Source: Rhynchopus sp. YZ270_cl-10 (lineage: Eukaryota). From it: a stretch of 64,000 bases of DNA. The notes beneath the pieces are model-generated. The model saw only the letters and a list, made by a program, of their open reading frames with translations, was not told where the DNA came from and ran no database searches. The first letter of the stretch is position 1, and each line of letters opens with the position of its first letter. This document shows, in pieces, positions 9,534-52,459 of the stretch. A program made the position numbers and the translations under genes. The stretch spans positions 558,001 through 622,000 of the forward strand of contig OZ037839.1 of NCBI GenBank assembly GCA_964035575.1, given 5' to 3'.

Positions 9534-9693
9534 CCACGGTGGACCTAGTCAGGGAGGACTGCTATCGTGGAAGTACTAGTTATGACGGCCACTGCTAAAC
9601 TAGTAGTGTTCCTGGTATAATACTAGTCGTGAAACAGTAGTCATTTGGACCAGTAGTACTACTGGTAGTCCCCCTGATTAGGTCCGCCGTATA
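9534..9693. mobile_element. Small TIR element (ACTAGT-rich MITE-like family)
   Basis: Ends cacggtggacctagtcaggg / ccctgattaggtccgccgt are inverted. Related copies at ~11838-11999 and ~51719-51876. Confidence 0.55.
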
Positions 9694-9810
9694 TCCCCCC
9701 ACACATCCCAGCTATATTTTTTGCCATCTTTACTTTTTTTTACAAAAAATTCTAAACACCCCGTCCCTTAGTTTACTTCCCCGACGTCGAACACCCCTGT
9801 CCGGTGCAGC

Positions 9811-13403: not shown

Positions 13404-13775
13404 ATTTTATAAGAAAAATGTGTATTTTTCTGTGTTGTTTTTAGTAATATCTATGCGGGGTTATCGTGTGTGCTTGGAAAAGTTGGAAGGGTTGGAAATA
13501 CAAAGTCCTCTCGTGAACAGTGTACCCTTGGTGCACCGGGGTACCCCTACTATGCTATATCCTACATCCATTTTGAGGACTGAAAAAAAAACAAAAATAA
13601 GGTTTAAGGCAAAAATGAAAGGGAGGCGAAAGGGATGCTGTGTGGTCGTTGTCCTCAAAATGTCTGAAAATGAAATATTCTCACACAGGGCTAGGTGAAT
13701 AGGTAGAGGGCACAACGTAAATACCGATGCAACGCAGGATCGCAACAGACCTTTGCATAGTGGACGGCACACCAC

Positions 13776-14858: not shown

Positions 14859-16528
14859 TGTTTTGTAAAAAAAGTTGGTAAACTGCGGAAAACGCAAAAC
14901 AAACTCGCGAACAAAAAAAGTGTTTTTTTCTGCGAAGTGTGTGTGGGGGAGAATAAAACGTTACAAAAAAACCTCCACTATCATTTTGCAAGCTTCATTT
15001 CCGTTTTGGTTTTCTCTTCACAGAAAAATAATAAAACCTACATTCTTGAACTCTTCTACACGACGTGATTTTCATTGGACGCATCCCCTTTTTTGAAACG
15101 CTAATAACTTTTTGGCTCCCCTCTGTAAGTGTTGGTTGAATTAGAATAGGAGCACAAACAAAGGGCAATGAAAGGAAAACAATGAGTACAAGAACAAGAT
15201 AGAAGAGCCAGTATTTACTTTTACGAACTACACACACAATTCCAATCATTCGAACCGAAGACGCCCAAACATTTCGGTTTGCTATTTCCTTACAACCGTT
15301 TCGTCTGTCGTAAGCTAAGCTTGTAGGAATAAAAAATAAAACTCTTCCTTTTTTAGATAGATATTCAGTAAAAAGAAACGAAAACAAGGAAAAAAAGAGA
15401 GAAAGTTTTTTCGTTGATCGCTCGAATTAGTGTCCCTGAGTGAATGAATCTGGGGAGTAATTCGGCAAGCACTATCTAAAAACAGAGTTTTATTTTTATA
15501 TGACGATTCTCGTATATTCAAAAAAAAAAATCGGGTTTTTTGTAGGCAAAACTCGGTTAGAAAGTTATTGCCGTGTCTCTTACCGTGCTCTTTGTCGTTA
15601 AGTTTCGTATCAATCTTTTGTTGTTTTATTGTCGTTATGTATTACGGGGATGGGGAAGTGAAGCAATATGTACCTCAGCCTCTTGTACAAAGGCACCTTC
15701 AAAAACAAAAATGATGTGGCTCCAAACCTGCCTTTTGCACCACAAAAGAAGTACCAAAGATGTACAAAATGGCTACGGTAATATTTTCAACTACACAAAA
15801 ATAGAAAAATACAGTCGACCCCCAAAAAACAGAAGAATCTCTCCCAGGGGGCCAAACAAAAAGTTCTGTTGCAGTGATCAGCAGAACATTTTTTTTTTGG
15901 CAATGCACTGCTTAAGGAAAAGATACTAATGGCCAACTGTTTCCAGCGCATAACGCCAAAAGGCTTTCCCCTGGATGGCAAATGAAATCAAAAGCAAATG
16001 AGACGCGTTACTTTCTCTTTTTGAAAGCATTTGAACAACGACATGGAGTGCCACTTGGAACAAATGGCAGCCCGACGCCTTTGTGATTGAGTCCAGGGGA
16101 TTGGTTTGTTGTTGGTTTGAAGATGTCGTATACGAAATATAAAGCAGTGCACAATTCAAGACAATGTTACTTTGTACTACGGAAGGTATAGACGTAGATC
16201 GTCCTCAACCCTTGAGAGTACCTTTTGTTTCTTCACACATTTCACTGTTTCCAATTTCACGGTGTTTTTTTTCTCTTTTTTCTTTCTTTGAAAAATTGTG
16301 GGAATAGTGTAGTTGCCACCTGTGCAAGGTTCACTTTCCCTTTGTTCTTTCTTTTTGCCAAACTATAACTCATTAAAAGCGACCCCAAAAAACAGAAAAA
16401 GTTCTTCCATTTTTTAAATATTGTACAGCATGCTCTGCCCCCAAGAGGAAACGAAACACCTATCACGCAGCATGCTGGGTCGCACTGCGTTTCGGACTGG
16501 GCTTACGACTTCCTCTGCTGGCCGTTCC

Positions 16529-18148
16529 TCACTGTGCTCGACACAACATCGCTGCAGCCTGTCCCAGACCCTGACCCTCCAAATACCCTTGCTTGCCATG
16601 CTCCTGTTTGCCCAGTTCCTGCTTGTCCTCGTCCTCTTTTGCTTGCATCGAACCGTCTCCTTCTTGTCCTGCTTTCAATGCAATACATTGTCTTGCACTT
16701 CCAGACACGTCTGTTCGTACCAGAGCTTCTGTCCGCACACCTCCGAACTGTTCCGTAAACCTTGCGTAAATGTCACGCACACGTACATGGAAGGTCTTCG
16801 TGACGCCAAAGCCATGGTTCTCTTGGGCTTCATTCGGGAGAGACATCTCGTGAATGTCGATGTTGCCTGGCAAGACGACTGTTGTGAGTGCGTTGCAGTT
16901 GTGCAGGAAGCCGTACTCTATCTCTGTGTCAGTGCCGATACCTGATATGTCCAGCGTGGTCAAGGATGTGCACTCTTGCAGGAAAGATTCACAAATGTTC
17001 TCAACATTGCTCAGTCCTGATAAGTCTGCTGTTGTCAACGCGGAGCACTCTTGCACCCAGTTTTGCTCAATGCGCGCGATGCTGCGCAGCACTGATAAAT
17101 CGACTGTTTTCAATGATGAGCAGTGACTAAGAAAGCTGTGCCCAATGTCTGTGGCATTTCCAAAAGCTGAAAGGTCGATACTTGTCAGCGAGGTGCACCT
17201 CGTAAGAAAGCCGTACCCTACCTTCACAACCCCGCGCAATGCTGTCAAGTCAATCGTTTCCAACGAGGTGCAGTCAGTACAAAAGTTGTTCGTAAGTTCC
17301 GTCACATTCGTCATCCCTGAAAAGCTGATGGCGGTCAACGACGTGCAGTTGAAGAGAAATCCGGAGCCGATCTTCGTGACACTGCAAAAAGCTGATAAAT
17401 CAACGGTTGCCAACGAGGTGCAGCTCGACAGGAAGCTGTCCTCAATGTGCGTGATTCTGCGCCATCCTGAGATGTCAAGACTTTGCAACGAGCTGCAGCG
17501 GTGGAGGAAGTGCCTACCAACCGTCGTCACGCTCGTCATATGGGATAAGTCAAGCTTTGTTACGCCACTTCCTTTGAGGAACCTGTTCTCTATCACCCTC
17601 ACACCAGTGAACCCTGACACGTCAAGGCTTGTCAACGATGTGCAGTCAAAGAGACAGTCATTCCCGATGTGCGTAACGTTGCACAATCCCGACAAGTCAA
17701 CGGTTTCCACCGACCTACACGCGAAGAGGAAGCCATGCTCAATTCGCGTCACACCAGACACAGCAGAGAGATCAAGTCTCGTAAACGATGCTCTGCACAA
17801 GAACCCAGCAGGAATAACAGTCGCAACCTCCGCCTGAAGAAGCAGAGAAGCCACCTCAGGATTCTTCACATCCGCCAACCTCGCTTCGGAAATGTCTGTC
17901 TCACCCAAGGCACGAAGTTCCTCAACGGATTGGTACTTAGTAGTTTTCGTCAACACGACAGAGTCTCCAGCACTCAGTTCTGTGATGTCCTCTCCTTCCT
18001 CCTTCCCTCCGAAGCCCATGTGGAAGCTGTCTTCGGCCAACCCTGTTGCAAACGCCACCTTCTGCCGCATCGTCTCCGTTGTGTCCTTCTCACCCACCTC
18101 AATCACGACTTTGTTTGCATCATCATATCCCTGCACACACAGTTCCAT
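16529..18148 (-). CDS. Longer divergent Ubl-LRR protein (~539 aa; ends CRAQ)
   Basis: MELCVQGYDD..IEVGEKDTTETMRQKVA..GFGGKEEGEDITELSAGDSVVL is near-identical to the Ubl of copies 1-4. About 14 25-aa LRRs follow. The start is set by homology. Confidence 0.85.
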   Translation of the reverse strand: MELCVQGYDDANKVVIEVGEKDTTETMRQKVAFATGLAEDSFHMGFGGKEEGEDITELSAGDSVVLTKTTKYQSVEELRALGETDISEARLADVKNPEVASLLLQAEVATVIPAGFLCRASFTRLDLSAVSGVTRIEHGFLFACRSVETVDLSGLCNVTHIGNDCLFDCTSLTSLDVSGFTGVRVIENRFLKGSGVTKLDLSHMTSVTTVGRHFLHRCSSLQSLDISGWRRITHIEDSFLSSCTSLATVDLSAFCSVTKIGSGFLFNCTSLTAISFSGMTNVTELTNNFCTDCTSLETIDLTALRGVVKVGYGFLTRCTSLTSIDLSAFGNATDIGHSFLSHCSSLKTVDLSVLRSIARIEQNWVQECSALTTADLSGLSNVENICESFLQECTSLTTLDISGIGTDTEIEYGFLHNCNALTTVVLPGNIDIHEMSLPNEAQENHGFGVTKTFHVRVRDIYARFTEQFGGVRTEALVRTDVSGSARQCIALKAGQEGDGSMQAKEDEDKQELGKQEHGKQGYLEGQGLGQAAAMLCRAQ

Positions 18149-18301
18149 TGTTTCGAGTGGAGTGTTTGCTCTGTTGTGGGGGAAGACTAAGTGTTGAGAA
18201 GGAGGCAGGTAAATAGTTGCTTTGTTGTACTTTTCATTTTTTGAGCTGCTGTGGTTCTGGATGTGCAGAACAGTCACAGGGGAGATGGCTTTCTCTTGCA
18301 T

Positions 18302-18359
18302 CAGGCCGTACCGTTAACCGCAATAGGTCTCCCAGGCTAAAAGCCTCTGGCCGACAGAA

Positions 18360-30001: not shown

Positions 30002-30907
30002 TTAAAACCTTGGTGAATTGCAGGTTTCAGCGAGGGTAGGTGAGCCGGGTTCGTCGACGGTACCAGCGTCAAGTCTAACATTGTCAAAACCTGTTTGAAA
30101 CCAGCTGTGGCGGATGACTGCTTCAATGCTTAGACGCGACTCTGGGTTGCGGACAAGCATCTTGGAGATGATATCCTTTGCGCCTGAGGAGAAGTCCCGG
30201 CTCATGTCGTACTCCCCTTTCATGATCTTCGCCAGCAGAGTAGGAATATGAGGGTCCACGAAGGGCAGGTACCCCGCAAGCGTAACATACAAGATCACAC
30301 CACAGGACCACACATCCGCGCTAAAACCGTTGTACCCTTCCTTTTCTAAGACCTCTGGGGCAACGTAGTTCGGCGTTCCGCACACAGTCTGCAGCTGCAT
30401 CGAGTCAACCACCTGACCAGATTCCGTTGTAGGCTGAATATTTGAAAGACCAAAATCACTGATTTTGAGACCCTGGTCGGAAAGAAGGATGTTCTCTGGC
30501 TTCAAATCACGGTGCGCCACCCCCTGTTGATGCACGTATCGGACACCCAAAATGAGGTCCTGGAAATACGATCGGGCGATCGATTCTTCGAGACCTTTCC
30601 TCGTGTCGACAATTTTTTGGAAGAGTTCGCCGCCCTCGACGAGCTCCATGACCATGTAAATGTTATTGCTAGTCTGCAGGGTGTCGTAGAGGTTAACCAC
30701 GTTGGGGTGGCTCAGAGACTTCATAATGGAAATCTCACGGTACAGCTGCTTCGCCGTGCGCGTATTCCTGCACAGCATCTCCTTTTTCATGATCTTGACT
30801 GCAACCTTCTTGCCCGTTTCTATCTCGTATCCACGCTTCACCTCTCCAAAGCTCCCTTTACCAAGCACACTCTCCTCCAACCTAAACCGTCCAATAATTT
30901 TTCCCAT
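30002..30907 (-). CDS. Ser/Thr protein kinase, SNF1/AMPK/CIPK-related (CAMKL-type)
   Basis: Motifs GKGSFGEV, VAVK, HRDLKPEN, DFG, LQTVCGTPNYVAPE and DVWSCGVILY. It may have further 3' exons that I could not find. Confidence 0.92.
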   Translation of the reverse strand: MGKIIGRFRLEESVLGKGSFGEVKRGYEIETGKKVAVKIMKKEMLCRNTRTAKQLYREISIMKSLSHPNVVNLYDTLQTSNNIYMVMELVEGGELFQKIVDTRKGLEESIARSYFQDLILGVRYVHQQGVAHRDLKPENILLSDQGLKISDFGLSNIQPTTESGQVVDSMQLQTVCGTPNYVAPEVLEKEGYNGFSADVWSCGVILYVTLAGYLPFVDPHIPTLLAKIMKGEYDMSRDFSSGAKDIISKMLVRNPESRLSIEAVIRHSWFQTGFDNVRLDAGTVDEPGSPTLAETCNSPRF

Positions 30908-33110
30908 TTTTTTGTGTTGTGTTGTTTTTCTGAGTAGGTTTGTTAATATACTTTAGGCAGAAGGGCGAAAAGAGGGTTCCAAGAAGGGGGTGCTTGGCTG
31001 CAAGCATGAAATCTTCGCCTTTTTTTTGAGGATGACATTCCATTTGTTTTGGATTCCCTCAAGCGCGCTGACAGGAAGGCAGGCAACCACCGCTGTGTTC
31101 ATATGATGAAAGTGGACCTGTCGCACAGGGTCCGGGAAGAAATGCAGCAAGAATCCGGACGACGCCGAGAGCTGAGGGCTGAGGGCGCTCCACGGGGAGT
31201 AGTGTCTGCGCAATCTCATCCGCTCACATACCCCATACGGGTCGTAGCGATTGGAAGCACAAAACCGCGTAAAGGGAGCCTCCAGTATGCGGAAGCCATG
31301 GGAATTTTTTGAAAGAAAAAAATGGACGACACGAACAACCTGGGAAAAAAGCTTTTTCCATGTCTCAAGGAAGGAAGGAAGTGTAAAAAATATGCGAACA
31401 TCAGGAGGACAGCACCGACACGTGGCTCTCATGGGAGAAAAGGGAGTCTATGCTTGACGTTGTGATATGTGGACGCAGGCTGGATGCGAAATAGAGGGAA
31501 GAAAACAAAGAGAAAAGGGGTAATGTAGTTTATTTAACTTCCGTCGTTTGTCCTTTTAATGTTACTTTTTCTGTTTTTTGTTTGTTTGTTTTTTTTTGTG
31601 TTAATCGCTGCACTCCCCGACCTACCCCCCTTCACCGCCACGAAGGCGTCTTCGTTGCTACAAAATGTTGCAAATAATTTGTATTTTTTTCCACTTTTTT
31701 TGTACCAATAAAAGAAGGACCCTGTCCTTGGTGATTGGTTTTCCAAAAAGAAAAACGAAACCCCCCTGCATTTAGTGCCTGTTTTTTTTTTTTTTTCTAT
31801 TTATTTTTTTTGCTTTTGTTTTGCTTTGTTTTCTTCCAATGTGGCAACAATGCACCCCACCACTGTTGCACTAATTCTTTTAATTTTTTCGTCTTCCAAG
31901 AGAAAAAAAACAAATGTTAAAATGGCTAGATAAAGGATGTTACGGAACGACACTTTTTAGGGTCTCGCTTTTTTATTTTGTTTTGTTTTTTTATATTTTT
32001 TTTTAATTGTCTCGAGATCCGCTCTTCTCTTAGTCACCTTTAAAAAAACAAAATCTAAGCAGAACACAGTCTCAAAGTTTGCCAAAAAAATAAATCTTTT
32101 TCAGCACACTTTTTTTAAACGGTCACCACCAAATTGGGCTGCACTACGTTAGCCCCTTTGTATAAAAAATCACAACCGCCCCGCCTGAAACCACACTGAG
32201 AGGTATGCCCCCTCCCCCCGAAACGTTAAAATAAAGCGCGGTACAGCCCTGAAGAAAAGAAATTTTGGTGAAGTGGAGATTAAAAGAATCAGAAGACGAA
32301 AGTTAGGGGGGAGGGTTGAGGGGGGGAGGGAGGGGGGAGGAGGGTTGGGCTGTGTTCATGAGTCAGCGAGCCTTTACGGAAAAAGATTAAATTCAGAAAA
32401 GCTTCCGAATTATGGAAAAAGAAAGCGTTTTTTTAAAGAAAAATCGTCAAGATGAACGTCGCATCGTCTCGTTGAGTCCACCTGATTTTTTTTTGAAAAT
32501 TTTGGAGTTTAGTGGTGTTTTGTTTGGGGGGTTTAAATCCCACCAAATTCCATCCATAATTCAATTTCCATCAAAAATCAAATGCAAAAATGTTGCTTTC
32601 TTCAAAAAAAAATATCCATTTAAAAAATACTCCCCTCCCCAACGGATGTGCCCTGCCTCTCCTGGTTAGAGCCGTGGGAAGCTTGAACTGGGGAGAAAAA
32701 AAAAATCAAACAAAAAAAATTCTGGGCGAGAGGGAGGGACCGATTGGAGAGGGGACAAAAAAAAATGCAAAGGAGCAAAACAAAGCCATTGTTAGAACTG
32801 CCCTCCCCTTATTTTCTTTTTTCAAAAAAATTGAACGTGTAGTCAAAAAAACACCATCTTATGTGATCACCCACGCAGATGGTGTGTTTTTTTATCATTA
32901 TGTGTATCACCTTCCTCCCTGGGGGTTGGTTTGACACAAAAAAAAAGTTTGTAAGATGAAATTTAAGCCCACAGAATCACGCTATCCTTCACACCCGATG
33001 GGGTACAGAATCTGAGTCTGGACCCAAAGCTGGAGTCTCTAGTTGAGACTCCATATTTTTTCTAAGGGTCTGGAGAGGGGGTACTGGGGCTGCAGGAGAT
33101 CACCTCCCGA

Positions 33111-35840: not shown

Positions 35841-38800
35841 CTAATAAACATCGGCATCAACAGATTGTAGTTCTGCTCCTGCATGCTGACGTGACTCTGC
35901 CATGTGTTCCCATGTCGCACGCATTGTGAGAAGTTTGTTGCGCAAGAGTTCCTTCTCTGCTGAATCTGTGCAATCAGTGAATCGCTGAATCAGTTCTTTC
36001 TGCACTTCCTGCTGCATGCTGACAACTCCGCGCAGTGTGTTGGAGCCTGTTCTGTTTGTCACATCTGTTCTGGAAACATCGGTATCAACAGGTTGTTGTT
36101 CTGCTCCTGCATGCTGACGTGACTCTGCCATGTGTTCCCATGTCGCACGCATTGTGAGAAGTTTGTTGCGCAAGAGTTCCTTCTCTGCTGAATCTGTGCA
36201 ATCAGTGAATCGCTGAATCAGTTCTTTCTGCACTTCCTGCTGCATGCTGACAACTCCGCGCAGTGTGTTGGAGCCTGTTCTGTTTGTCACATCTGTTCTG
36301 GAAACATCGGTATCAACAGGTTGTTGTTCTGCTCCTGCATGCTGACGTGACTCTGCCATGTGTTCCCATGTCGCACGCATTGTGAGAAGTTTGTTGCGCA
36401 AGAGTTCCTTCTCTGCTGAATCTGTGCAATCAGTGAATCGCTGAATCAGTTCTTTCTGCACTTCCTCCTGCATGCTGACAACTTGACGAAGTGTGTTGGA
36501 GCCTGTTCTGTTTGTCACATCTGTTCTGGAAACATCGGCATCAACAGGTTGCTGCTCTGCTCCTGCATGCTGACGTGACTCTGCCATGTGTTCCCATGTC
36601 GCACGCATTGTGAGAAGTTTGTTGCGCAAGAGTTCCTTCTCTGCTGAATCTGTGCAATCAGTGAATCGCTGAATAAGTTCTTTCTGCACTTCCTCCTGCA
36701 TGCTGACAACTTGACGAAGTGTGTTGGAGCCTGTTCTGTTTGTCACAGCTGTTCTGGAAACATCAACAGGTTGTTGATCTGCTCCTGCATGCTGACGTGA
36801 CTCTGCCATGTGTTCCCATGTCGCACGCATTGAGAGAAGTGTGTTGCGCAAGAGTTCCTTCTCTGCTGAATCTGTGCAATCAGTGAATCGCTGAATCAGT
36901 TCTTTCTGCACTTCCTCCTGCATGCTGACAACCCCACGCAGTGTGTTGGAGCCTGTTCTGTTTGTCACATCTGAGCTACAAACATCAACATCAACAGGTT
37001 GTTGCTCTGCTCCTGCATGTTGACGTGAATCTGCCATGTGTTCCCATGTCGCACGCATTGAGAGAAGTTTGCTGCGCAAGAGTTCCTTTTCTGCTGAATC
37101 TGTGCAATCAGTGAATCGCTGAATCAGTTCTTTCTGCACTTCCTCCTGCATGCTGACAACTCCACGCAGTGTGTTGGAGCCTCTTCTGTTTGTCACATCT
37201 GTTCTGGAAACATCGTCATCGTCAACAGGTTGCTGCTCTGCTCCTGCATGTTGACTTGACTCTGCCAATCTCCAGCTTTCGGATATCTCCTCGATGGTAA
37301 GAACTTGACGAAGTGTGACAACTTCAGCAGCAACAAGTGGAAGCTCCGGTGCGGAAAGGGACGTCGCCATGTGTTCCCAAGCAGCACGAATTGGTTCAAG
37401 TTTCTCCCGCAAGCGCTTCTTTGCTGCTGAATCCATTTGACGCAGTTCGCTGAGTGCTGCTGTGTTTGTCACATCTGCCTGGATGTCGGCAACGTCGGCA
37501 TCAACGACGCCACCTGCCTGATCCACTTCCTGCCCCACGCCTACCATAAGATAACGCACAGTCTCCGTGCCTCCCTCTTCCGCAGCAGTAATCAGACATG
37601 TCACCTTCTGTATTTTATGTTCTTTTCTGTCCCCTGCAGCAGCTTCAAAGTGCTGTGAGAGCTCCTCGATATGTTCTGTGACACGCAGTTCCGCACCAGC
37701 TTCCACCAACAGATTCACAATGTCGCGGTTCTCTCCCATGCACGCACAGACAAGAGGCGAAGGTCCTCTGTCGTCCCATTTCTCGATGCGTGCACCTGAA
37801 TCAATAAGCTCCTGCACCTCAGCTGCATATGATTTGGGGTAACGCGCTGCTGCATCGAAACGGATATTGCCATTGCCCTGTATATGCAGCCGTGCACCCG
37901 CTTCAAGCAACATCCTCACGATATGGACCTCACCCGCCCGACAAGCCATCATCAGAGGCGAACAGACCAACTCGCTCTTTGCTTCCACGTCTGCACCTGC
38001 ATCAATAAGCACCTGCAGCACAGCTGCATGGTTGCTGGCCACTGCGTAGTGCAACGCAGTCCAGTGCTGAGCATCAACGAGGTCCACATCCACCTCTGGC
38101 GTGCACAGAAGGCTTTTCACAGTCGCCGTGAATCCACCAGCAGACGCAATCATGAGACATGTCTTGCCATCTCGGTCTCTTGCACCCACATCCGCACCTG
38201 CTCGAACCAATACCTTCACAGCATCATTCACGTCTGCCTTGCAACCCAACAGCAGAGGCGTGCATTGCCTCGCATCCTTTTTCTCGATGTCTGCACCTGC
38301 ATCAATGAGCACCTGTACCACATCTGCATGGTTTAGCTTGACTGCCTCGTTCAATACAGTAGTTGCATACAGCCCACCTACCTGATCCACATCCACCTGA
38401 CCCAATCCCACAAGATAGCGGACAGTCTCCGTGAATCCCCCACGTGACGCAACGATAAGACATGTGTCGCCGTGGCAGTCTGTGAGACGCAGTTCCGCGC
38501 CAGCTTGCACCAACATCTTAACAATGTCGAGGTACCCGCTCATGCACGCAAGGAGAAGAGGCGTACGTCCTTCAGAGTCCTTTCTCTCGATGTCTGCCCC
38601 TGCATCAATGAGCACCTGCACTACATCAATATGGTTGTAACGTGCTGCCTTGTGCAACGCTGTGCTGCCGCTCAAACCTACCTGATCCACATCCACCTGC
38701 CCCACGTCCACAAGATAGCGCACAGTCTCCGTGTGTCCCCAACGCGTAGCAAGGATAAGACATGTGTCGCCGTCAGTGTCTGCAACACTCAGTTCCGCAC

Positions 38801-39311
38801 CAGCTTGCACCAACATCATCACAGTGTCGTGGAAGCCTCTCATGCATGCAAGGAGAAGAGGCGTATATCCAAAAGAGTCCTTGTTGTCGATGTTTGCCCC
38901 TGCATCAATGAGCACCTGCACCACATCTGCATGGTTTAGCGTGACTGCCTCGTGCAACGCGGTGACGTTGTACTCGGTCCCACCTACCTGATTCACATCC
39001 ACCTGCCCCAATCCCACAAGATAGCGCACAGTCTCCGTGTATCCCGCACGTGAAGCAACGATAAGACATGTGTCGCCGTCGGCGTCAGCAACACTCAGTT
39101 CCGCACCAGCTTGCACCAACACCTTCACAGTGTCGAGCCAACCCACCAAACACGCAAGGAGAAGAGGCGTACGTCCATTATAGTCCTTTTCCTCGATGTC
39201 TGCCCCTGCATCAATGAGCACCTGCACCACATCTGCACGTGCTTCTTCCACTGCCTCGTGCAACGTAGTGTTGCTGTGGTTGTCTGCGTCTTGCCCATGT
39301 GTGTTGCCCAT
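35841..39311 (-). CDS. Ankyrin-repeat protein (~17 ANK) with C-terminal 76-aa tandem repeats, 1156 aa
   Basis: TALHxA / TPLLLAC / DTCLIxA ankyrin triplets, then about six 228-nt units. Confidence 0.88.
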   Translation of the reverse strand: MGNTHGQDADNHSNTTLHEAVEEARADVVQVLIDAGADIEEKDYNGRTPLLLACLVGWLDTVKVLVQAGAELSVADADGDTCLIVASRAGYTETVRYLVGLGQVDVNQVGGTEYNVTALHEAVTLNHADVVQVLIDAGANIDNKDSFGYTPLLLACMRGFHDTVMMLVQAGAELSVADTDGDTCLILATRWGHTETVRYLVDVGQVDVDQVGLSGSTALHKAARYNHIDVVQVLIDAGADIERKDSEGRTPLLLACMSGYLDIVKMLVQAGAELRLTDCHGDTCLIVASRGGFTETVRYLVGLGQVDVDQVGGLYATTVLNEAVKLNHADVVQVLIDAGADIEKKDARQCTPLLLGCKADVNDAVKVLVRAGADVGARDRDGKTCLMIASAGGFTATVKSLLCTPEVDVDLVDAQHWTALHYAVASNHAAVLQVLIDAGADVEAKSELVCSPLMMACRAGEVHIVRMLLEAGARLHIQGNGNIRFDAAARYPKSYAAEVQELIDSGARIEKWDDRGPSPLVCACMGENRDIVNLLVEAGAELRVTEHIEELSQHFEAAAGDRKEHKIQKVTCLITAAEEGGTETVRYLMVGVGQEVDQAGGVVDADVADIQADVTNTAALSELRQMDSAAKKRLREKLEPIRAAWEHMATSLSAPELPLVAAEVVTLRQVLTIEEISESWRLAESSQHAGAEQQPVDDDDVSRTDVTNRRGSNTLRGVVSMQEEVQKELIQRFTDCTDSAEKELLRSKLLSMRATWEHMADSRQHAGAEQQPVDVDVCSSDVTNRTGSNTLRGVVSMQEEVQKELIQRFTDCTDSAEKELLRNTLLSMRATWEHMAESRQHAGADQQPVDVSRTAVTNRTGSNTLRQVVSMQEEVQKELIQRFTDCTDSAEKELLRNKLLTMRATWEHMAESRQHAGAEQQPVDADVSRTDVTNRTGSNTLRQVVSMQEEVQKELIQRFTDCTDSAEKELLRNKLLTMRATWEHMAESRQHAGAEQQPVDTDVSRTDVTNRTGSNTLRGVVSMQQEVQKELIQRFTDCTDSAEKELLRNKLLTMRATWEHMAESRQHAGAEQQPVDTDVSRTDVTNRTGSNTLRGVVSMQQEVQKELIQRFTDCTDSAEKELLRNKLLTMRATWEHMAESRQHAGAELQSVDADVY
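35844..37170 (-). repeat. Coding minisatellite, 228 nt x ~6
   Basis: gcatgctgacgtgactc recurs at 35881, 36109, 36337 and onward. The unit encodes TLRxVVSMQEEVQKELIQRF...NRTGSN. Confidence 0.95.
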
Positions 39312-40144
39312 GTGTGTCTCGTTGCTGTGTCTTATGTTGTGTGTCTGTCAGTGGTGGAGTGACGTTACTCTTTGTGAAGAGGTGTGTGGACAGAGGAGAG
39401 GATAAGCACCCGGCATCACGCAGTATGGCTTCACTGTGCAACTGCAGTGAAGGACGCCTCCAAATGAGATGTGCGTTCTTCGGGATATTTCATGAGTCTT
39501 TACCCAGGATGGGTGCCATCAGTAAACAGTGAACAGTAAGCGAATAAATAGAGAAAGGGTGGGGGTATTTCACTTTGTTTAAGAGTTGACTCTAGATATG
39601 AACGGGGTGGGGTGTGCATGGGTAGGGAGGTTGAGGGAAATGAAAAGAAATGTGACTTGAAATACAATTCCCTCTCGTGAACAGTGTACCTTGGTACAAA
39701 TGACCTGTGCACCGTGGGGTGGACCCCAACAAGCAGTCCTACATCCATTTCGTGGTTTACCTCTGACATCTGATATGCTCTACCCCCGCTTCCTCTCATC
39801 AGTCAGATGAAAGCATGCATCGTTCGAGACGTATGGTTGATTAAGTCTGCGTGATGCAGGGTCTGGGAAGAAAATACTATAAAGATGACCCCAAGCCTCT
39901 CATGCTTGGTCACCTTGAACAAAAGGAGGTGCTACGTGGCATGCAAACAGTTTACCCTGTGAGAACGCTCAACCCTGACCCCTAAAAAAAAACAAATAAA
40001 TGCTATCCGGAAAACAACAACGGGGTGTGCTGTGGATATGGGGAGGCTCGATAGCCACTCATGTGCAGAAGCAGACTCAGCGTGTTCCAGCACGTAGTCG
40101 TCATCCGCAGACGCCATGCGCACCCTTCAAACTAGGTTTTGTGA

Positions 40145-43100
40145 TTACGGAAACGGCACACTGACCTTGCCGTTGGTGGACATCTCCACGAGGGAGCCAT
40201 CGTCATCAAGCAGGCATCTTCCTGTCAGCTTCGCATCGCTGCGTGCGTACATGATGGGTGCAGGGAGGGCCACCGGACCGGTCCAGTTGTAGTACAGGGA
40301 CGCCAGGTCGTTCGCCATCTTCTGGTATTTGTCGGCCTCGAGCTTCTTGCCTTCGTAAACGAGGCATTTGTACTTAATGGACTGTGGGGACCCAAGGCTC
40401 GCTTCCTGCGACAGAAGGTAGAACTCCATACCACGTGGGTTCACCACACCGGTGTCCATCACTGTGCCCACCGGTGGTGCCTTGCTCACGGTTGCCTTCC
40501 TGACGCTGCCCTCAATGAAGGTGTCGACACTAGCCACACGCATGTGAGAGTTTCTCATGACAAGGAAGAACACGATGTCGACCTTCTTGCCAGGAAGGGT
40601 CTCCAGCACCTTGCGCAGGGCCGCAACCTCGAGCTCCAGGATCAGAGGGATCTCACCCTCAGACCCTCCTTCGCGGAAGAAGACAATCTCCAAGGGTGCC
40701 TTGCCACCGTTCTTTGTCTTGAAGATGTCCACAAGCTCCTGGAAGGGTGCCGCAAGGTTGTTCGCAATGGTTTTGCCAGCGTCCAGCACAACACGCTTCG
40801 TGTTGTACGCCTTCAGCTCTGTGTCCCACGAGGCCGCAATCGACATGACACTCTTACGCTCACCACGTCCAGCACCATCGCCTGCATGCGACATCGCAAT
40901 GCCCACAGCCATCGTGCCTTCGAACCTGCATCCCTGCTTCCTCCACAGCTGGTTCCCTGCCTTGGTGTGGATCTGCGCCGCCACGTTGTTGCAAACACTC
41001 CACCCCTTCTTACCCTCAAGCGAAGACGGGCGGACCACCTGGCAAACAACGCCGTGCTTACTACTACACACCTTGGCAGCTTTGTATGCATCTGCGTTCT
41101 TCGGCGAGTCACCCGCGTCCGTCACAAACAGGTAGGCGTCGGGCTTGTTTTTGTACTCTGCGAACACACGCGTCACCTCGTCTGCAGAGAAATCCGCCAT
41201 GTCAATGAGGCGCACAGCAGGGTTCTTTCCGTTCGAGAAGTGCTTCACTGAGTCACTCAGGAACGCCGAGTTCTCCTGCCAGCACGTCTTCGCCCCCCTC
41301 GGACATGCCACAAGCAGCTGCTTGATGTCCCTCACGTTCTGAATGGGCTTGGCCGTCGTGTTCACGCGTCTGTTGATCTTGTACCTCCAGCTGGTGCCCT
41401 CTTCCACAAGACCGTTCGACTGCTCAATCACTGGCCCCTTGAGCTGACGGGCCTGCTCCATAACAAACCCTGCGGCAGGTGCACAGCCCCACTTTCCGCC
41501 CAGTTCCTTGAACGGTCGAAGCACAGCACCCGCTATGTCCTTGATTTTCTGGAAGCGAACGCCTGGTTTCACGACACAGCGGTCTGTCATGAGCTGGCGC
41601 ACGTCTGACCCGTACACCTCAGGCACAATGCCTGTGAGGCGCAGCACAGACGGAAGGTAGTACTCCACCTCGGCAACTTCCTGGCCCTGTGTGTTGTGGT
41701 TGTGGTTGTGAGTGTCTGGTGTTGCACATACCTGTCTCATGGGCTTCTTGTGCACAAGAAGCGGCTGTCCCTTCGGCACCTTCAGGCCGTACTGCGTCTC
41801 GAAGTACTGCTTCACGCTCTTCCCGTCAAGCTGCAGCAATTGTGTCGTGGTGAAGGTGTGGTGCTGCACAGGTACATACCTCCTTCAGCGGGGTCGACTC
41901 ATCCTTCGTGGGGTCGACATCGTCGATGCGCACAGTGCGCTTCTTCTTGTCCTTCCCGTCGTACGTCGTCAGGCAGATGGTGCCCCGCACCTTGAAACGC
42001 AGGGTCTCCCTCGCCTTCTTGTCGGACGCGGCACTCAGGTTCAGCTCCTCGAAAATTGTCTGCTTGCTCACAATCTTGTGCTGCACGTCGATCTGCAGGG
42101 CAAGTCCAGACCCGAAGTTCGTGGGGCGCAGTGTCAGGTGCACACCAGGCACAACGTCCAGCTTCTTCCCAGGGAGCTGCTGTGCCTTCGTGAGGTCGAA
42201 GTAGCTGCGGTTGATCTTCTGCATGCACCCCTCGTCAAGCACACTGCGGAACAGCTTCGAGAACACTGTGATCAGGTCCTGCGTGATCTTCGTTGTGGTC
42301 ACTTCGCGCACAGACTTCACAGTGACCTTGAACCTGTCACTAATCTTCTTCTGCCTCTCCTCCGTTGGGGAGAAGTCCACCTCCGTTGCTTTGATGTTCT
42401 GGTTTGCAAAGACGATGTCTCCTGCGACGATGCACGAGAAGTTCGGTCCCATCTCTGCCGAGAGGGCCTCCTGCACGAGACATCTGTGTGTCTTCCTGCT
42501 CTTCACCTCGGGCGACACCTTCACGTCGTACTGGCCGATCACAGTGTTCTCTGCGAAGGTGAGCTCAACTGTGTTGGTGACGACATCCACGGGTGTGCCG
42601 TTGATGCCGCTTGCAGGGTGCGTCACAGCATCCAGGGCGGACACAACTCTGTTGCGCGCCTCGTCCACATCCTTCGCCTCACGGCCCTCCGTGTAGCGCG
42701 GTGCCTTCTCCCCAAACTCGTACACAGGCACGTAGCGATCGGCCGGGTGCTGCAGCTTCAGCTGCGAGCGAACAGGCACATCAGCACTGGCACCGCCACC
42801 ACCACCCTTGCCCTTCCCGGAATCTCCCTTACCTCCCTTACCCTTCTTACCCTTGCCGCCCTCCTCGCCCTTGAAGCCCTTGACTCCTTTCCCCCTATCC
42901 GTTCCCTTTCCTCCATGCAGTGTGTTGGAGCCTGTTCTGTTTGTCACATCTGTTCTGGGAACATCGGCATCAACAGGTTGCTGCTCTGCTCCTGCATGCT
43001 GACGTGACTCTGCCATGTGTTCCCATGTCGCACGCATTGAGAGAAGTTTGTTGCGCAAGAGTTCCTTCTCTGCTGAATCTGTGCAATCAGTGAATCGCTG

Positions 43101-46100
43101 AATCAGTTCTTTCTGCACTTCCTCCTGCATGCTGACGACTTGACGAAGTGTGTTGGAGCCTGTTCTGTTTCTCACATCTGTTCTGGTAGCATCGGCATCA
43201 ACAGGTTGCTGCTCTGCTCCTGCATGCTGACGTGACTCTGCCATGTGTTCCCATGTCGCACGCATTGAGAGAAGTGTGTTGCGCAAGAGTTCCTTCTCTG
43301 CTGAATCTGTGCAATCAGAGAATCGCTGAATCAGTTCTTTCTGCACTTCCTCCTGCATGCTGACGACTTGACGAAGTGTGTTGGAGCCTGTTCTGTTTGT
43401 CACATCTGTTCTGGTAGCATCGGCATCAACAGGTTGCTGCTCTGCTCCTGCATGCCGACGTGCCTCTGCCATGTGTTCCCATGTCGCACGCATTGAGAGA
43501 AGTTTGTTGCGCAAGAGTTCCTTCTCTGCTGAATCTGTGCAATCAGAGAATCGCTGAATCAGTTCTTTCTGCACTTCCTCCTGCATGCTGACGACGTGAC
43601 GAATTGTGTTGGAGCCTGTTCTGTTGGTAACATCTGTTCTGGAGGCATCGGCATCAACAGGTTGTGGTTCTGCTCCTGCATGCTGACGTGACTCTGCCAT
43701 GTGTTCCCATGTCGCACGCATTGAGCGAAGTGTGTTGCGCAAGAGTTCCTTCTCTGCTGAATCTGTGCAATCAGTGAATCGCTGAATCAGTTCTTTCTGC
43801 ACTTCCTCCTGCATGCTGACTACTTGACGAAGTGTGTTGGAGCCTGTTCTGTTTGTCACATCTGTTCTGGAAACATCGGCATCAACAGGTTGCTGCTCTG
43901 CTCCTGCATGCTGACGTGACTCTGCCATGTGTTCCCATGTCGCACGCATTGAGAGAAGTGTGTTGCGCAAGAGTTCCTTCTCTGCTGAATCTGTGCAATC
44001 AGTGAATCGCTGAATCAGTTCTTTCTGCACTTCCTCCTGCATGCTGACGACGTGACGAATTGTGTTGGAGACTGTTCTGTTGGTAACATCTGTTCTGGAG
44101 GCATCGGCATCAACAGGTTGTGGTTCTGCTCCTGCATGCTGACGTGACTCTGCCATGTGTTCCCATGTCGCACGCATTGAGAGAAGTTTGTTGCGCAAGA
44201 GTTCCTTCTCTGCTGAATCTGTGCAATCAGTGAATCGCTGAATCAGTTCTTTCTGCACTTCCTCCTGCATGCTGACGACTTGACGAAGTGTGTTGGAGCC
44301 TGTTCTGTTTGTCACATCTGTTCTGGAAGCATCGGCATCAACAGGTTGCTGCTCTGCTCCTGCATGCTGACGTGCCTCTGCCATGTGTTCCCATGTCGCA
44401 CACATTGAGAGAAGTTTGTTGCGCAAGAGTTCCTTCTCTGTTGAATCTGTGCAATCAGTGAATCGCTGCATCAGCTCTTTCTGCACTTCCTCCTGCATGC
44501 TGACAACTTGACGAAGTGTGACAACTTCAGCAGCAACAAGTGGAAGCTCCGGTGCGGAAAGGGACGTCGCCATGTGTTCCCAAGCAACACGAATTGGTTC
44601 AAGTTTCTTGCGCAAGCGCTTCTTTGCTGCTGAATCCATTTGACGCAGTTCGCTGAGTGCTGCTGTGTTTGTCACATCTGCCTGGATGTCGGCAACGTCG
44701 GCATCAACGACGCCACCTGCCTGATCCACTTCCTGCTCCACGCCTACCATAAGATAACGCACAGTCTCCGTGCCTCCCTCTTCCGCAGCAGTAATCAGAC
44801 ATGTCACCTTCTGTATTTTATGTTCTTTTCTGTCCCCTGCAGCAGCTTCAAAGTGCTGTGAGAGCTCCTCGATATGTTCTGTGACACGCAGTTCCGCACC
44901 AGCTTCCACCAACAGATTCACAATGTCGCGGTTCTCTCCCATGCACGCACAGACAAGAGGCGAAGGTCCTCTGTCGTCCCATTTCTCGATGCGTGCACCT
45001 GAATCAATAAGCTCCTGCACCTCAGCTGCATATGATTTGGGGTCACGCGCTGCTGCATCGAAACGGATATTGCCCTTGCCCTGTATATGCAGCCGTGCAC
45101 CCGCTTCAAGCAACATCCTCACGATATGGACCTCACCCGCCCGACAAGCCATCATCAGAGGCGAACAGACCAACTCGCTCTTTGCTTCCACGTCTGCACC
45201 TGCATCAATGAGCATCTGTATCACGGTCTCATGTTCCATGAACACATCATGTCTAGCCACTGCGTGGTGCAACGCAGTCCAGTGCTCAGCATCAACGAGG
45301 TCCAGACCCACCTCTCCCATGCACAGAAGGCTATTCACAATCGTCGTGAATCCACCAGCAGACGCAATCATGAGACATGTCTTGCCATCCCGGTCTCTTG
45401 CACCCACATCCGCACCTGCTCGAACCAGTACCTGCACAACATGATTCCCGTCTGAGCTGCAATCCAACAACAGAGGCGAATACCAGGAGGCATCCTTTTT
45501 CTCGATGTCTGCACCTGCATCAATGAGCACCTGCACCACATCTACATGGTCTCCACCAACTGCCTTGTGCAACGCAGTAGTTGAGTACTGCCCACCTACC
45601 TGATCCGCATCCACCTGCCCCAAGTCCACAAGATAGCGCACAGTCTCCGTGTGCCCCTCACTCGAAGCAGCGATAAGACATGTGTCGCCGTTGCTGTCTG
45701 TGACACGGAGGTCCGCACCAGCCCGTACCAAAACCTTCACAGTGTCGAGGTAACCTTCCTCGCACGCAAGGAGAAGAGGCGTACGTCCTTCAGAATCCTT
45801 TTTCTCGATGTCTGCACCTGCATCAATGAGCACCTGCACCACATCTGCATGGTTACCACCAACTGCCTCGTGCAACGCAGTGTCTGCGTCCGGCGCACCT
45901 ACCTGATCCGCATCAACCTGCCCCAAGCCCACAAGATAGCGCACAGTCTCCGTGTGTCCCTCACTCGAAGCAGCGATAAGACATGTGTCGCCGTTGGTGT
46001 CTGTGACACGCAGTTCCGCACCAGCTTGCACCAACACCTTCACAGTGTCGAGGCACCCTTCCAAACACGCAAGGAGAAGAGGCGTACGTCCTCGAGAGTC

Positions 46101-47120
46101 CTTTTTCTCGATGTCTGCACCTGCATCAATGAGCACCTGCACCACATCTGCATGCTTCACGGAAACTGCCTTGTGCAACGCTGTCATGCCGAACCTACCT
46201 ACCTGATCCACATCTACCTGCCCCAAGCCCACAAGATAGCGCACAGTCTCCGTGTGTCCCTCACTCGAAGCAGCGATAAGACATGTGTCGCCGTTGGTGT
46301 CTGTGACACGCAGTTCCGCACCAGCTTGCACCAACATCTTCACAGCGTACCCTTCCTCGCACGCAAGGAGAAGAGGCGTACGTCCTTGAGAGTCCTTTTT
46401 CTCGATGTCTGCCCCTGCATCAATGAGCACCTGCACCACGTTTGTATGGTATAGCTTAATGGCCTCATGCAACGCAGTGGTTGCGTCCTGCCCCCCTACC
46501 TGATCCACATCCACCTGCCCCAAGCCCACAAGATAGCGCACAGTCTCCCAGTGTCCCTCACTCGAAGCAGCGATAAGACATGTGTCGCCGTGGAAGTCTG
46601 TGACACCCAGATCCGCACCAGCTTGCACCAACATCTTCACAATGTCGAGGGACCCTACCAAGCACGCAAGGAGAAGAGGCGTACGTCCTTCAGAGTCCTT
46701 TTTCTCGATGTCTGCCCCTGCATCAATGAGCACCTGCACCACATCTGCTTTGTTGTGACGTACTGCCTTGTGCAACGCTGTGTTGACTCTCCAGTTCGTA
46801 CCTACCTGATCCACATCCACCAGCCCCAAGCCCACAAGATAGCGCACAGTCTCCGTGTGTCCCTCACTCGAAGCAACGATAAGACATGTGTCGCCGTTGC
46901 GGTCTGCAACACTCAGTTCCGCACCAGCTTGCACCAACACCTTCACAGTGTCGAGGTACCCTTCCATGCACGCAAGGAGAAGAGGCGTACGTACAAAAGA
47001 GTCCTTTTCTTCTATGTCTGCCCCTGCAGCAATGAGCACCTGCACCACATCTGCACGTGCTTCCTCCACTGCCTCGTGCAACGTAGTATTGCTGTTGCTA
47101 CCTGCGTGTTGCCCAGACAT
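40145..47120 (-). CDS. Ankyrin (~23) - 76-aa repeat (x7) - GK-rich linker - Piwi/Argonaute (N-PAZ-MID-PIWI) fusion, ~2293 aa, predicted slicer-inactive
   Basis: Exons 47120-41880, 41830-41732 and 41686-40145, with GT-AG introns of 49 and 45 nt, both phase 0. PAZ: SVKQYFETQYGL..QPLL. MID: YKAAK..VCQVV..QIHTKAG..LW. PIWI: PPVGTVMD, EFYLLSQ, LYYNWTGPVALPAPIMYA. Confidence 0.85.
42920..44520 (-). repeat. Coding minisatellite, 228 nt x 7
   Basis: Same unit as 35844-37170, seven copies directly upstream of the Piwi moiety. Confidence 0.95.
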
Positions 47121-47518
47121 TACTTGTGTCTCGTTGTTGTGTCTTGTGGTGTGTGTCTGTCAATGGTGGAGTGACGTTACTCTTTGTGAAGAGGTGTGTG
47201 GACAGAGGAGGGGATAAGCACCCGGCATCACGCAGTATGGCTTCACTGTGCAACTGCAGTGAAGGACGCCTCCAAATGAGATGTGCGTTCTTCGGGTTAT
47301 TTCATGAGTCGGGAGGTGCGTCGGAGGTGCAGGAAAAAAATGAGGGAGGGGGGCGTGGGGGTTTCTTCTTGCTTACAGTGCACGCTGCGAGACTAAAATT
47401 GAGGATGACACGCAGCAAATAGAATAAACACAATTTCAAACAAAAGAATGCACAACCGCCTCGCCGACAAAAGAATCATAGGAAAGATGACACTGTACAG
47501 GACACCTCCATCGTCTAC

Positions 47519-49496: not shown

Positions 49497-50981
49497 CTAG
49501 AAATGAACGCTCTTCAGCATCAGCTCCATTGCGTAATCTTCAAGAACATAACGCCCTGTGAACGCTAGCGCTACACCGAGGAATATCGAACATGGCAGTG
49601 CGGGGAGGGGACGGTGCAATGCTGCTAGACCAAGCAGGGTCGCACACATGCCTACTAGGACTCCTATGAACGAAACCGACCACGCTAGAAACCCCGTACT
49701 AGCCGCCCTCGCAACGAGAAGACTGTAAAATACAAAGTCTCCAAGCCCCAGTTTGTACCTCCTGCTTTCGTAGACTAAGGCTGGGATTGGTTCGTCGCGA
49801 CGGACAGACTCCTCCACCAAAACCTTTAATGGCCCGCAGCAAACCGCAAATATATCATAAAATGCGACAATAATGAGCAAACACCACGTCGTCCACTCCG
49901 GCAACCTCGTCATATACCATGCCATAACTGCTGAGGTTGCGATATGATAGCCTCGTGTAACAGAAGGGTGGCCACGGTAGTAAATACTGATAAGCCCTAC
50001 CACAGAAAAGTTGTAGGTGATCATTATAAAGCTGATCCAGTCGAGGGCGATCTGATAGCGTACGCACATCCGTTCGATGAAGAGAACGCAGACCCCAATC
50101 AGAACCATTGCTGTGGACGCAACGAGCCACATGAACATAACAGAGAGACAGCGCAGTTTGTAAAGACAAACAAACATTAAGGTGAGAAAGACGATAAGCG
50201 AGGTGATGATGACAGCGTTCAGCAGGGCGCCGCCGAAACGCTTCCCGCTGCTCTCGCTGTTTGAGGGGTTGCCTGCAAAGGAGATAACCGATTTGCTGGA
50301 GGTACTGGTTCCATCTATGAGGGACCCATCGTATACGTCAATCTGCTTAAACACCAACGTCAAAATAACGGCAGCAAACATCGTCATACTGACGGGGATG
50401 ACCAAATAGTTCATGTATTGGGAATGTCTTTGGGCAACGGAGTCGCCCCCTTTTGGTCGTTTTGGTGGTTTTACCTTGGGGACTTTAACTAATATCTTCG
50501 CTTCTTCGTCATTATCAGGGACAATCTGTGGATGTTCCTCCATCAGCTCGCTTTCCGCATCGCTGTCTGGGTTTGCTTCGAAGGAAGGTTCGATGAAGGT
50601 TATGGTAACTTCGGTTCTCGCCTGGCCGGCTTCTCTCATTTGCGCTAAAGTGTTTATTTCGTTTCCGTTCATGTGTGTCAGGTAGTGGTCGATATACTTT
50701 GCTACCCCGCACCGTGCTGCAGGCGAACCCTTCGCTACGGTACGCAGCCGAAGCCTTAATGTGCCATCTGGGAGCTCCACATCGAGCACACCGATTCCAA
50801 GCTTTTCATTCATCTCCTTTACTACCGACACTTCAACAGGCTCGGGTGGAGGTGGTGGAGGTGGCGGTGGCGGTGGACTTTCAGACACATCGTCATACCC
50901 TCTCCCGCCACCACGCAATAAGGGCATACCCTCACGATCACCTTCCGCACGACTCACCTGAGAGTCATTCAGGTGCGGCAT
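49497..50981 (-). CDS. PSEN: Presenilin (GxGD intramembrane aspartyl protease) with N-terminal PDZ-like domain, 494 aa
   Basis: Multiple TM segments and LPEWTTW, with catalytic FYDIFAV and KLGLGDFVFYS and the PALP motif. Confidence 0.92.
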   Translation of the reverse strand: MPHLNDSQVSRAEGDREGMPLLRGGGRGYDDVSESPPPPPPPPPPPEPVEVSVVKEMNEKLGIGVLDVELPDGTLRLRLRTVAKGSPAARCGVAKYIDHYLTHMNGNEINTLAQMREAGQARTEVTITFIEPSFEANPDSDAESELMEEHPQIVPDNDEEAKILVKVPKVKPPKRPKGGDSVAQRHSQYMNYLVIPVSMTMFAAVILTLVFKQIDVYDGSLIDGTSTSSKSVISFAGNPSNSESSGKRFGGALLNAVIITSLIVFLTLMFVCLYKLRCLSVMFMWLVASTAMVLIGVCVLFIERMCVRYQIALDWISFIMITYNFSVVGLISIYYRGHPSVTRGYHIATSAVMAWYMTRLPEWTTWCLLIIVAFYDIFAVCCGPLKVLVEESVRRDEPIPALVYESRRYKLGLGDFVFYSLLVARAASTGFLAWSVSFIGVLVGMCATLLGLAALHRPLPALPCSIFLGVALAFTGRYVLEDYAMELMLKSVHF

Positions 50982-52459
50982 TTTAAAATCTAAACGGATG
51001 CAGATAAGAGGGGGTGTTATAGAAAAGGTGTATATGTGAAAGGACCACGAGAGGTTGGGGGGGAGGGGGTGGTCTCTGTGGGAGGGGGGGGGTGAGGTGC
51101 GATGCGTTTAAAATAAAAGAAAGTGTAGAAGCTGAAAGGCTGTGTGTGTGTGGCGGTAACGTCACCCCCTTTTTGATTGCATTGGAAGGCGATGGGGGAA
51201 CCCTTCCCAGCGTACCTCTAGCACTGAGAGTTTGACTTTGCAATATAAAGTGCCTCTCATGACACATCCCATTTCAAGGTGAACAACATATGAAGTAAAC
51301 ACCAAAAAAGACCCTCCTTTTTTTAATAAAAACTCAACTGACAAAAAAACGAGTTAAAAATACGATTGGGGGGGATTTTGTTAGCCATGGCAAGCCTATT
51401 TTCTTTGGCACGTTCAAGAATATGGGGGGGGAAAGTATTTCAAGAATCAACTGCTTTCCATTCGTAAAATAGGTACTAAATGTACCCAAACTTTTTGAAA
51501 GCGGATTTTTTTGTTTTTGATAGCAACGTAAGAAGACGGGAAAAAAGAAAAAGGAATCGCCTTTTTTGATTGCACCTCCTACTGACCCACTGTACGATGC
51601 CAGCCATCCGGATGAAAGCACAAAAGTAGGGCCACTTTAAAAATGACTTTTGACCTACTGTTAACTGCACAATGTAGTACAACGAGGGGCAAAAAGAGAG
51701 GGTAAAAGAATTGTAGGGTACACGGCGGACTAGTCAGAGAAGACTACTAGTGGTGCTACTCGTCCACATGACTAGTGTTTTACAACTAGTGTTACACCAG
51801 TAACACCACCAGTGTAGCACCAGTCGTTACGACTAGTAGTTTCGCTAGTAGTTCACCTGACTAGTCTGTCGTATACGTGGTGTTCCGGAGGGGGGGGATA
51901 TTGACAGGTCCTGAAGGGGGGTCCACTTTGGGTTTGCCCCCCTATATTGACAGGTCCTTGACTAGGTTTCAGGAACACCAATATGTGATCCTACACTTTC
52001 CCCTCACTCTGCAGGGTTCATGTTGGGTTTTTGTTTTGTTTTGATAAGCATTTTGGGAAGAAGAAGAAAAATATGTACCAATTTATGCCACTGATTTTGC
52101 CTGAAATTTTGGAGGAGTTTGGTGGGTATTTAAACCCTCCAAACTGCACTAAAATTTCAGGAAAAAATTTGGTGGATCATTACAAAAAAATAAAAACTGT
52201 TATCTGAGTTTAAGCTAGTCTGATAAAGAAAGAAACGAAATCAGAAAAAGAATTTTTCGTTGATCGCACCGGATTTTTGTGGAGTGTGTAGGGACAAAAT
52301 CAAAAACTTTTCTGTGAATAAGTTGTGTCGTGTTTACATCGCTCACACCAAAAAAATTCGGGCACAACTCAGATATGTTTTCATTTCCTCCCCTACAACC
52401 TTTGCAAGGCAGTTGTCACAAAAAAAAATGGCACCTTTTTTTTTTTTGCTTGTTCCCAC

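Follow-up and report, generated by a model that had tools for sequence, protein, structure and literature searches.

Argonaute proteins that no longer slice are already common; the catalytic tetrad is degenerate in Drosophila Piwi and in the nematode WAGOs. Together with HsAGO1 and HsAGO4, these proteins (PDB 6KR6 for Drosophila Piwi) share a bilobed organization, a degenerate tetrad, and an intact guide pocket with the diplonemid Piwi proteins described here. According to the part of PMC10772731 considered, slicing needs two metal ions that are bound by the tetrad, position 1 being a direct ligand, and HsAGO4, which carries Gly at position 3 and Arg at position 4, is deficient in slicing. The position-4 Arg of HsAGO1 and HsAGO4 is also found in the copy described below, but the diplonemid clade differs from slicer-deficient eukaryotic Argonautes in being altered at all four positions and in that this state spans a whole protist class. 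Inactive long-B and short prokaryotic Argonautes, in the parts of PMC10620215 and PMC12477606 considered, resemble the present case as guide-binding sensors that work via partners, and that part of PMC12477606 contains no mention of diplonemids or euglenids. These proteins belong to an unrelated lineage, however, and the partner in the present case is an ankyrin scaffold in a singleton fusion.

Diplonemids are among the most abundant marine protists. In the part of the Diplonema papillatum genome paper considered, functional RNAi is inferred from Dicer, Piwi, Argonaute, and RdRP homologs, "five Piwi proteins" are given as RNAi components with no comment on catalytic residues, and three "Argonaute family" proteins are counted besides them (PMC10161547); the supplements other than Additional file 1 contain no mention of Piwi, Argonaute, or slicer. 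Five near-identical Piwi accessions of this species (KAJ9445222/3/5/6/7) lie on one 89.6-kb contig, and both distinct sequences (the P0016/P0020 cluster) lack the tetrad. D. papillatum Piwi belongs to the same clade as the Piwi part described here (approximately 43% identity, 380/876) and shares with it a Gly/Lys-rich start, Ala and Glu at tetrad positions 1 and 3, and an intact MID pocket. It differs in its own Met start, the lack of ankyrin repeats, Gln at position 4, and a Glu beside the finger Gly, which among the named orthologs aligned occurs only in this species. Neither an ankyrin-Piwi fusion nor a class-wide slicer-dead diplonemid Piwi was found in the literature searched, the scope of which excluded subscription papers and Section 9 (RNAi) of Additional file 1 of PMC10161547.

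The window, i.e., the whole 64-kb stretch of DNA analysed, is part of a diplonemid nuclear contig of Rhynchopus sp. YZ270 and carries an ankyrin-Piwi gene on its minus strand. Among named proteins, that of R. euleeides is closest to the Piwi part (approximately 62% identity). The gene is spread over two overlapping minus-strand ORFs (41826-47159 and 40145-41884), which together encode a full Piwi-type Argonaute preceded by ankyrin repeats and seven copies of a 76-aa repeat (Table 1). The 76-aa repeat is likely a coiled coil, judging from its sequence and weak Pfam coil matches, and the Pfam scan found no enzyme domain in the fused ankyrin partner. An earlier reading of the sequence alone (the sequence-only reading) had described the frame as fully intact. 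This holds for the MID-PIWI part but not for the whole gene, in which the frame 41826-47159 terminates within PAZ and two predicted introns of 49 and 45 nt have to be removed; the spliced model then encodes 2,293 aa, of which the Piwi share is 892 aa, with no internal stops. Intron 1 is supported by the transcript-derived R. euleeides protein, which reads KELDGKS, and by the genomic ortholog P0013, which loses frame at the same site. No RNA run was among seven public runs with matching sequence, a result that has no bearing on expression. The predicted protein has the long eukaryotic Argonaute architecture N-L1-PAZ-L2-MID-PIWI, based on a strong Pfam Piwi match, a PAZ domain that was called in orthologs and aligned across the predicted introns, and the MID-PIWI fold; Pfam matches to ArgoN and ArgoL1 in the N-terminal part were weak and under the cut-off.

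Table 1. Positions of the ankyrin-Piwi gene, its active-site residues, and neighbouring genes within the 64-kb window.
Feature	Position	Strand	Basis
Exon 1 of predicted 2,293-aa protein (ankyrin, 76-aa repeats, Piwi)	41880..47120	-	Open frame, ATG at 47120
Ankyrin-repeat region	44760..47120 (lower bound approximate)	-	Pfam Ank_2 E 2.9e-138
Tandem period of 303 bp in ankyrin region	45493-47092	-	TRF
76-aa (228-bp) repeat, seven copies	42919..44520	-	TRF 7.0 copies, 95% matches
Fusion junction SNTL/HGGKG	42909..42920	-	Shares 4 nt (GGAG) with repeat units of the paralog type
Piwi N-terminal part: Gly/Lys-rich tract, N domain, L1, PAZ start	41880..42917	-	Ortholog alignment
Predicted intron 1, 49 nt, GTATGT...CAG (GT-AG)	41831..41879	-	PAZ frame restored (KE/LDGKS)
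Exon 2 (PAZ)	41732..41830	-	Predicted intron boundaries, ortholog alignment
Predicted intron 2, 45 nt, in frame	41687..41731	-	Insertion relative to orthologs
Exon 3: PAZ end, L2, MID, PIWI, terminal Pro	40145..41686	-	Pfam Piwi E 3.1e-44
MID 5'-phosphate pocket, intact: Tyr 41086, Lys 41074, Gln 41041, Lys 40963	40961..41086	-	
Tetrad position 1, Asp to Ala	40895..40897	-	phmmer and family alignment
Glu-finger position, Lys/Thr, no Glu	40769..40774	-	Loosely aligned column
Tetrad position 3, Asp to Glu	40670..40672	-	phmmer and family alignment
Tetrad position 4, His/Asp to Arg (Gln in most orthologs)	40241..40243	-	Family alignment
Unfused tandem paralog of ankyrin + 76-aa-repeat gene, downstream of Piwi	35841..39311	-	81% aa identity, 1,187 columns
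Four 363-aa BspA-type LRR genes in array and a longer one	3703-10902 and 16529-18313	-	
Presenilin gene	49497-51107	-	
Protein kinase gene	30002-30952	-	
CBS-domain gene	12081-13406	-	
Two WD40-like genes	1809-2864, 13776-14960	-	

Every annotated gene of the window is read from the minus strand, an arrangement that resembles a polycistronic cluster. On the plus strand, an intergenic element that starts with TGACTTGAAATACAA is dispersed over eight sites (18813, 20227, 39653, 47782, 49373, 53335, 53496, and 54868), always in the same orientation. Contig depth in the bin over one copy was far above that of the Piwi gene in four runs, although depth was not taken as copy number. Rfam gave no matches in the 64-kb window, this element included, and it could represent either a short mobile element or a signal for 3'-end processing.

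The motifs on which slicer loss had been proposed (GIAMSH, REG, YAR, and AGKTIANNL) all lie within the minus-strand ORF 40145-41884. Alignment to Siwi, human AGO1, and 129 PIWI-like proteins confirmed the positions of these residues. In the phmmer alignments, GIAMSH fell on GYDVCH of Siwi and GADVTH of human AGO1, FREG on YRDG and YARSD on YAHKL/YARLV of these two proteins, and AGKTIANN on SGEELSSH of Siwi; the register was also set by alignment to 159 homologs. The substitutions of Asp by Ala, Asp by Glu, and His by Arg thus stood as first read, as did the Y/K/Q/K residues of the MID pocket, and the lack of Glu at the finger is the weakest of the four tetrad calls because its column aligns loosely. 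The window copy lacks the DEDH/DEDD tetrad of slicers and retains the Y-K-Q-K guide pocket. An intact tetrad at a shifted register was rejected; the pairwise, family, and structural comparisons agree on the positions. The C-terminal 414 aa were modelled with AF2 from 88 sequences (pLDDT 91.5, pTM 0.91; an earlier model from 9 sequences, pLDDT 50.9, was discarded). In this model the first RNase H strand contains the Ala, a later strand has the Glu at its end, and the last helix carries the Arg. The top Foldseek match of the model was Siwi (5guh, E 8.8e-29), which is the best PDB match both by sequence and by fold. These comparisons and the model support well the view of a putatively slicer-dead protein with an intact guide pocket.

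The codons were further checked against contigs of public sequencing runs, one of which may be the source sample. The Ala and Glu codons were unchanged in contigs X3 record 19 and X4 record 26, and the Arg codon was unchanged in contigs X1 record 1, X3 record 18, and X4 record 25. Sequencing error as the origin of the substitutions was rejected; the public-run contigs carry identical codons.

Of the 35 MID-PIWI positions with at least 90% invariance among the 129 outgroup proteins, the window copy retained 27. The eight altered ones include both catalytic Asp residues; the loss is therefore selective and not a general decay. The conserved MID pocket, together with PAZ, predicts guide binding. 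The C-terminal carboxylate also takes part in the 5' pocket of Argonautes. The window copy ends in Pro (an end matched by contigs in X2 and X4) instead of the hydrophobic residue of guide-binding Argonautes; Leu, Ile, or Val is found there in 128 of 129 outgroup rows, in P0004, a second copy from the same species, and in 15 of 17 other clade rows, the two exceptions being one extended and one frameshifted end. The terminal Pro may thus be regarded as an extra caveat for the predicted guide competence of the fused copy. The PIWI sites 40555 and 40480 showed clade-specific changes at outgroup-invariant positions, namely KR/KK to RN, where Lys became Arg in 17 of 18 clade rows, and the Asn before PxxGT, which is Ala or Val in most Diplonemidae. 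Both changes may mark an altered target channel.

The clade comprised nine named species in two families (Diplonemidae and Hemistasiidae), namely Rhynchopus euleeides, R. humris, Flectonema neradi, Lacrimia lanifica, Diplonema japonicum, D. papillatum, Sulcionema specki, Artemidia motanka, and Namystynia karyoxenos, the proteins of which normally begin with MGG. Its monophyly with the named diplonemid Piwi proteins received a support of 1.0 in two trees (17 and 13 rows), from which the S. specki fragment (P0025) was left out. In a FastTree analysis (83 rows, 406 columns), a split with support 1.0 set PIWI apart from AGO proteins, and the clade fell with the former, as did one divergent AGO-set row. 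A domain scan found PAZ in the clade orthologs. Asp was present at position 1 or 3 in none of the 18 clade rows, which include the window copy and isoforms: position 1 was Ala in 13, Ser in four, and Gly in one, and position 3 was Glu in 14, Gln in three, and Ala in one. Position 4 was Gln in 10 and Arg, Ser, or Ala in two each, never His or Asp, with P0023 and P0025 unaligned there. In the outgroup of 129 PIWI-like proteins, by comparison, position 1 was Asp in 128, position 3 Asp in 126, and position 4 His in 115. The MID Y-K-Q-K residues occurred in all 18 clade rows. The residue count left out P0009 (the window's own protein), P0013 and P0017 (N-halves), P0021 (a 608-aa D. papillatum record, unaligned), and P0169 (an isoform of P0022), and P0026, P0030, and P0146 (D-D-S) were excluded from both the clade and the outgroup tallies. 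We infer from these residue states that tetrad loss is older than the split between Diplonemidae and Hemistasiidae.

The N. karyoxenos transcript P0022 (1,411 aa, two isoforms) encodes a clade Piwi with an Rrp15 domain in front and approximately 185 extra residues behind, and may be a transcript-assembly chimera via Gly/Lys-rich sequence or a second independent fusion. It was the one longer clade member among the best 150 of 4,091 matches in an all-length profile search, and it has no ankyrin. A JGI metagenome scan gave 241 pattern matches and no relatives.

Diplonemid Piwi might still slice weakly or by a non-canonical route, relying on the Glu that remains and on conserved acidic residues close by. 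Position 3 is Glu in 14 of 18 rows, an invariant Glu follows four residues past it, and 13 rows carry an Asp two residues past position 4. Toxoplasma Ago (TgAgo), with E/S/E, is reported as weakly active in the part of PMC9935688 considered, and T. brucei AGO1 is called a slicer in the corresponding parts of PMC3359990 and PMC3447711, the latter naming it the sole slicer. On the other hand, position 1, the direct metal ligand (PMC10772731, in part), is Ala, Ser, or Gly in all 18 rows, and position 3 is Gln or Ala in four. As 124 of 129 outgroup rows likewise have an acidic residue at the site of the downstream Glu, this Glu is not a replacement. The extra Asp lies two places along a helix in the AF2 model and is missing in the four hemistasiid-side rows. 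Residual slicing of this kind is thus considered improbable. Slicing by diplonemid Piwi is unlikely because the first Asp is gone too, beyond the changes at positions 3 and 4 as in HsAGO4. The three further Argonaute family proteins of D. papillatum mean that no claim is made that diplonemids lack every slicer.

The sister clade of the diplonemid clade (support 0.84 and 0.91 in two trees) includes one Tbor-labelled protein, which we take to be from the kinetoplastid Trypanoplasma borreli; the search returned no T. brucei protein, and any orthology with TbAGO1 would be putative. Unlike the diplonemid proteins, those of the sister clade mostly kept the first Asp (11 of 13 rows), but the third-residue Asp was absent in 13 of 13, although TbAGO1 has been called a slicer. 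The diplonemid clade shares a low-complexity Gly-rich N-terminus with kinetoplastid AGO1 of the TbAGO1 type, and the loss of the third Asp with the sister-clade proteins; TbAGO1, a reported slicer, differs in carrying RGG repeats instead of GK repeats. Trypanosomatid PIWI-tryp is not known to have a recognisable PAZ, a domain that the diplonemid clade possesses. The protein of the euglenid Ploeotia vitrea formed the next branch with weak support (0.72, 0.79) and is D-D-S. The series from euglenid D-D-S through kinetoplastid-side D-S/A-x to diplonemid A-E-Q suggests a stepwise erosion of the active site in Euglenozoa, because the sister clade lacks the third Asp while the euglenid keeps both.

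The sequence-only reading had considered that guide binding and action through partners fit the ankyrin fusion; on such a view the Piwi would have lost its tetrad while specialising with the ankyrin fusion. The position-4 Arg is indeed confined, among the clade rows, to the two copies of Rhynchopus sp. YZ270, but one of these is the second copy P0004, which is 97% identical, lies on another contig (955 kb), and has the same Ala, Glu, and Arg. Full-length unfused orthologs of Rhynchopus, Diplonema, Lacrimia, Flectonema, and Artemidia begin at their own Met in transcriptomes or genome annotation, no ankyrin domain was found in seven scanned orthologs, and the absence of either Asp extends to the unfused orthologs. 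Tetrad loss therefore predates the fusion, and the proposed link is refuted unless the orthologs were misassigned, which leaves it a negligible probability. The predicted ankyrin extension is likely a recent add-on and not the cause of tetrad loss.

At the junction, the last repeat unit ends in SNTL and the Piwi part starts with HGGKG at 42917. Six of the seven named full-length aligned orthologs begin with MGG, R. euleeides being without the Gly/Lys tract; as HGGKG stands where these have MGG, the junction falls at the Piwi start position. The unfused tandem paralog and the fused gene have a 186-bp 5' stretch in common (39313-39498 and 47125-47310, 96.8%), which, together with their 81% identity, places the Piwi duplicate within a tandem pair. 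Many divergent contigs over 39000-39350 and 44418-47126 indicate that the ankyrin gene is one of a large multicopy family in this organism. The junction reads CTG-CAT-GGA-G and the repeat units of the paralog read CTG-CGT-GGA-G, which fits a putative join at a 4-nt GGAG match and one later transition.

Clustering left the fused ORF (unspliced 1,764-aa product) as a singleton, confined to one 1.49-Mb contig. In X1, X2, and X4, contigs diverged from the window at 42830 and continued for approximately 458 nt; this extension starts with further Gly/Lys codons and has no match to the ankyrin gene, pointing to a copy without the fusion. We infer that P0004 and this 5' contig are one locus. Among the contigs of four runs over 42600-43000, none listed spans 42838-42907 or the junction, a result counted neither way because filtering leaves gaps. 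The window copy deviated at six of 164 columns that are invariant in six other rows, compared with 8 to 26 in those six orthologs. The fused copy is either subject to selection or of very recent origin, and its decay was rejected.

It is conceivable, with a probability that is appreciable yet clearly below even, that the fused frame is not one functional protein, the junction being an assembly or single-base artefact or the gene a young duplicate that is silent or trans-spliced into two messages, one for the ankyrin part and one for Piwi; the slicer-less state of the family would be unaffected. The junction coincides exactly with the Piwi start, its bases C-ATG-GA-GGA being one G short of the family-type ATG-GGA-GGA, and it adjoins the seven-copy tandem repeat; the fusion was seen in a single assembly, and the window copy ends in Pro. 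However, the junction can be explained without an indel by a paralog-type CGT-GGA-G unit, one G-to-A change, and a GGAG join, and the frame is open for 5.2 kb across it. The bases upstream form a purine-rich repeat without a pyrimidine tract, the window-type 3' end and flank were found in runs X2 and X4, and the fused copy has few deviations at conserved columns.

The explanation that we favour, and hold to be probable, is that a diplonemid-wide, tetrad-less PIWI-type clade binds guides and silences via partners without cutting, the ankyrin extension being a recent and unrelated chimera. The tetrad would have been lost before Diplonemidae and Hemistasiidae separated. Guide loading could proceed with no slicing of the passenger strand. 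T. brucei RIF4 may serve as a precedent in the sister lineage, guide maturation there being uncoupled from slicing and carried out by this exonuclease in the part of PMC3359990 considered. Targets would then be held while other factors, whether for translational block, decay, or chromatin, are recruited. A duplicate of an intron-containing Piwi gene would later have been joined to the repeat tail of one gene of the ankyrin tandem pair, presumably by DNA-level recombination at the short GGAG microhomology, which replaced the Piwi start codon. If the fusion is expressed, a Piwi that was already non-slicing could gain a module for protein binding from the ankyrin repeats, although the family manages without them. 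The stronger proposal that diplonemid Piwi silencing is entirely slicer-free as the end point of the erosion in Euglenozoa, with an expressed ankyrin scaffold in one copy here, is unlikely.

If diplonemid Piwi cannot cut, silencing would be either slicer-independent or reliant on the three Argonaute family proteins, which bears on the feasibility of RNAi knock-down in diplonemids and on the origin of the disputed chemistry of kinetoplastid AGO1. As D. papillatum is the model diplonemid, the question is testable there. For the present, the ankyrin fusion is best regarded as a curiosity; if the copy is expressed, it would be a eukaryotic parallel to the partner-fused inactive prokaryotic Argonautes.
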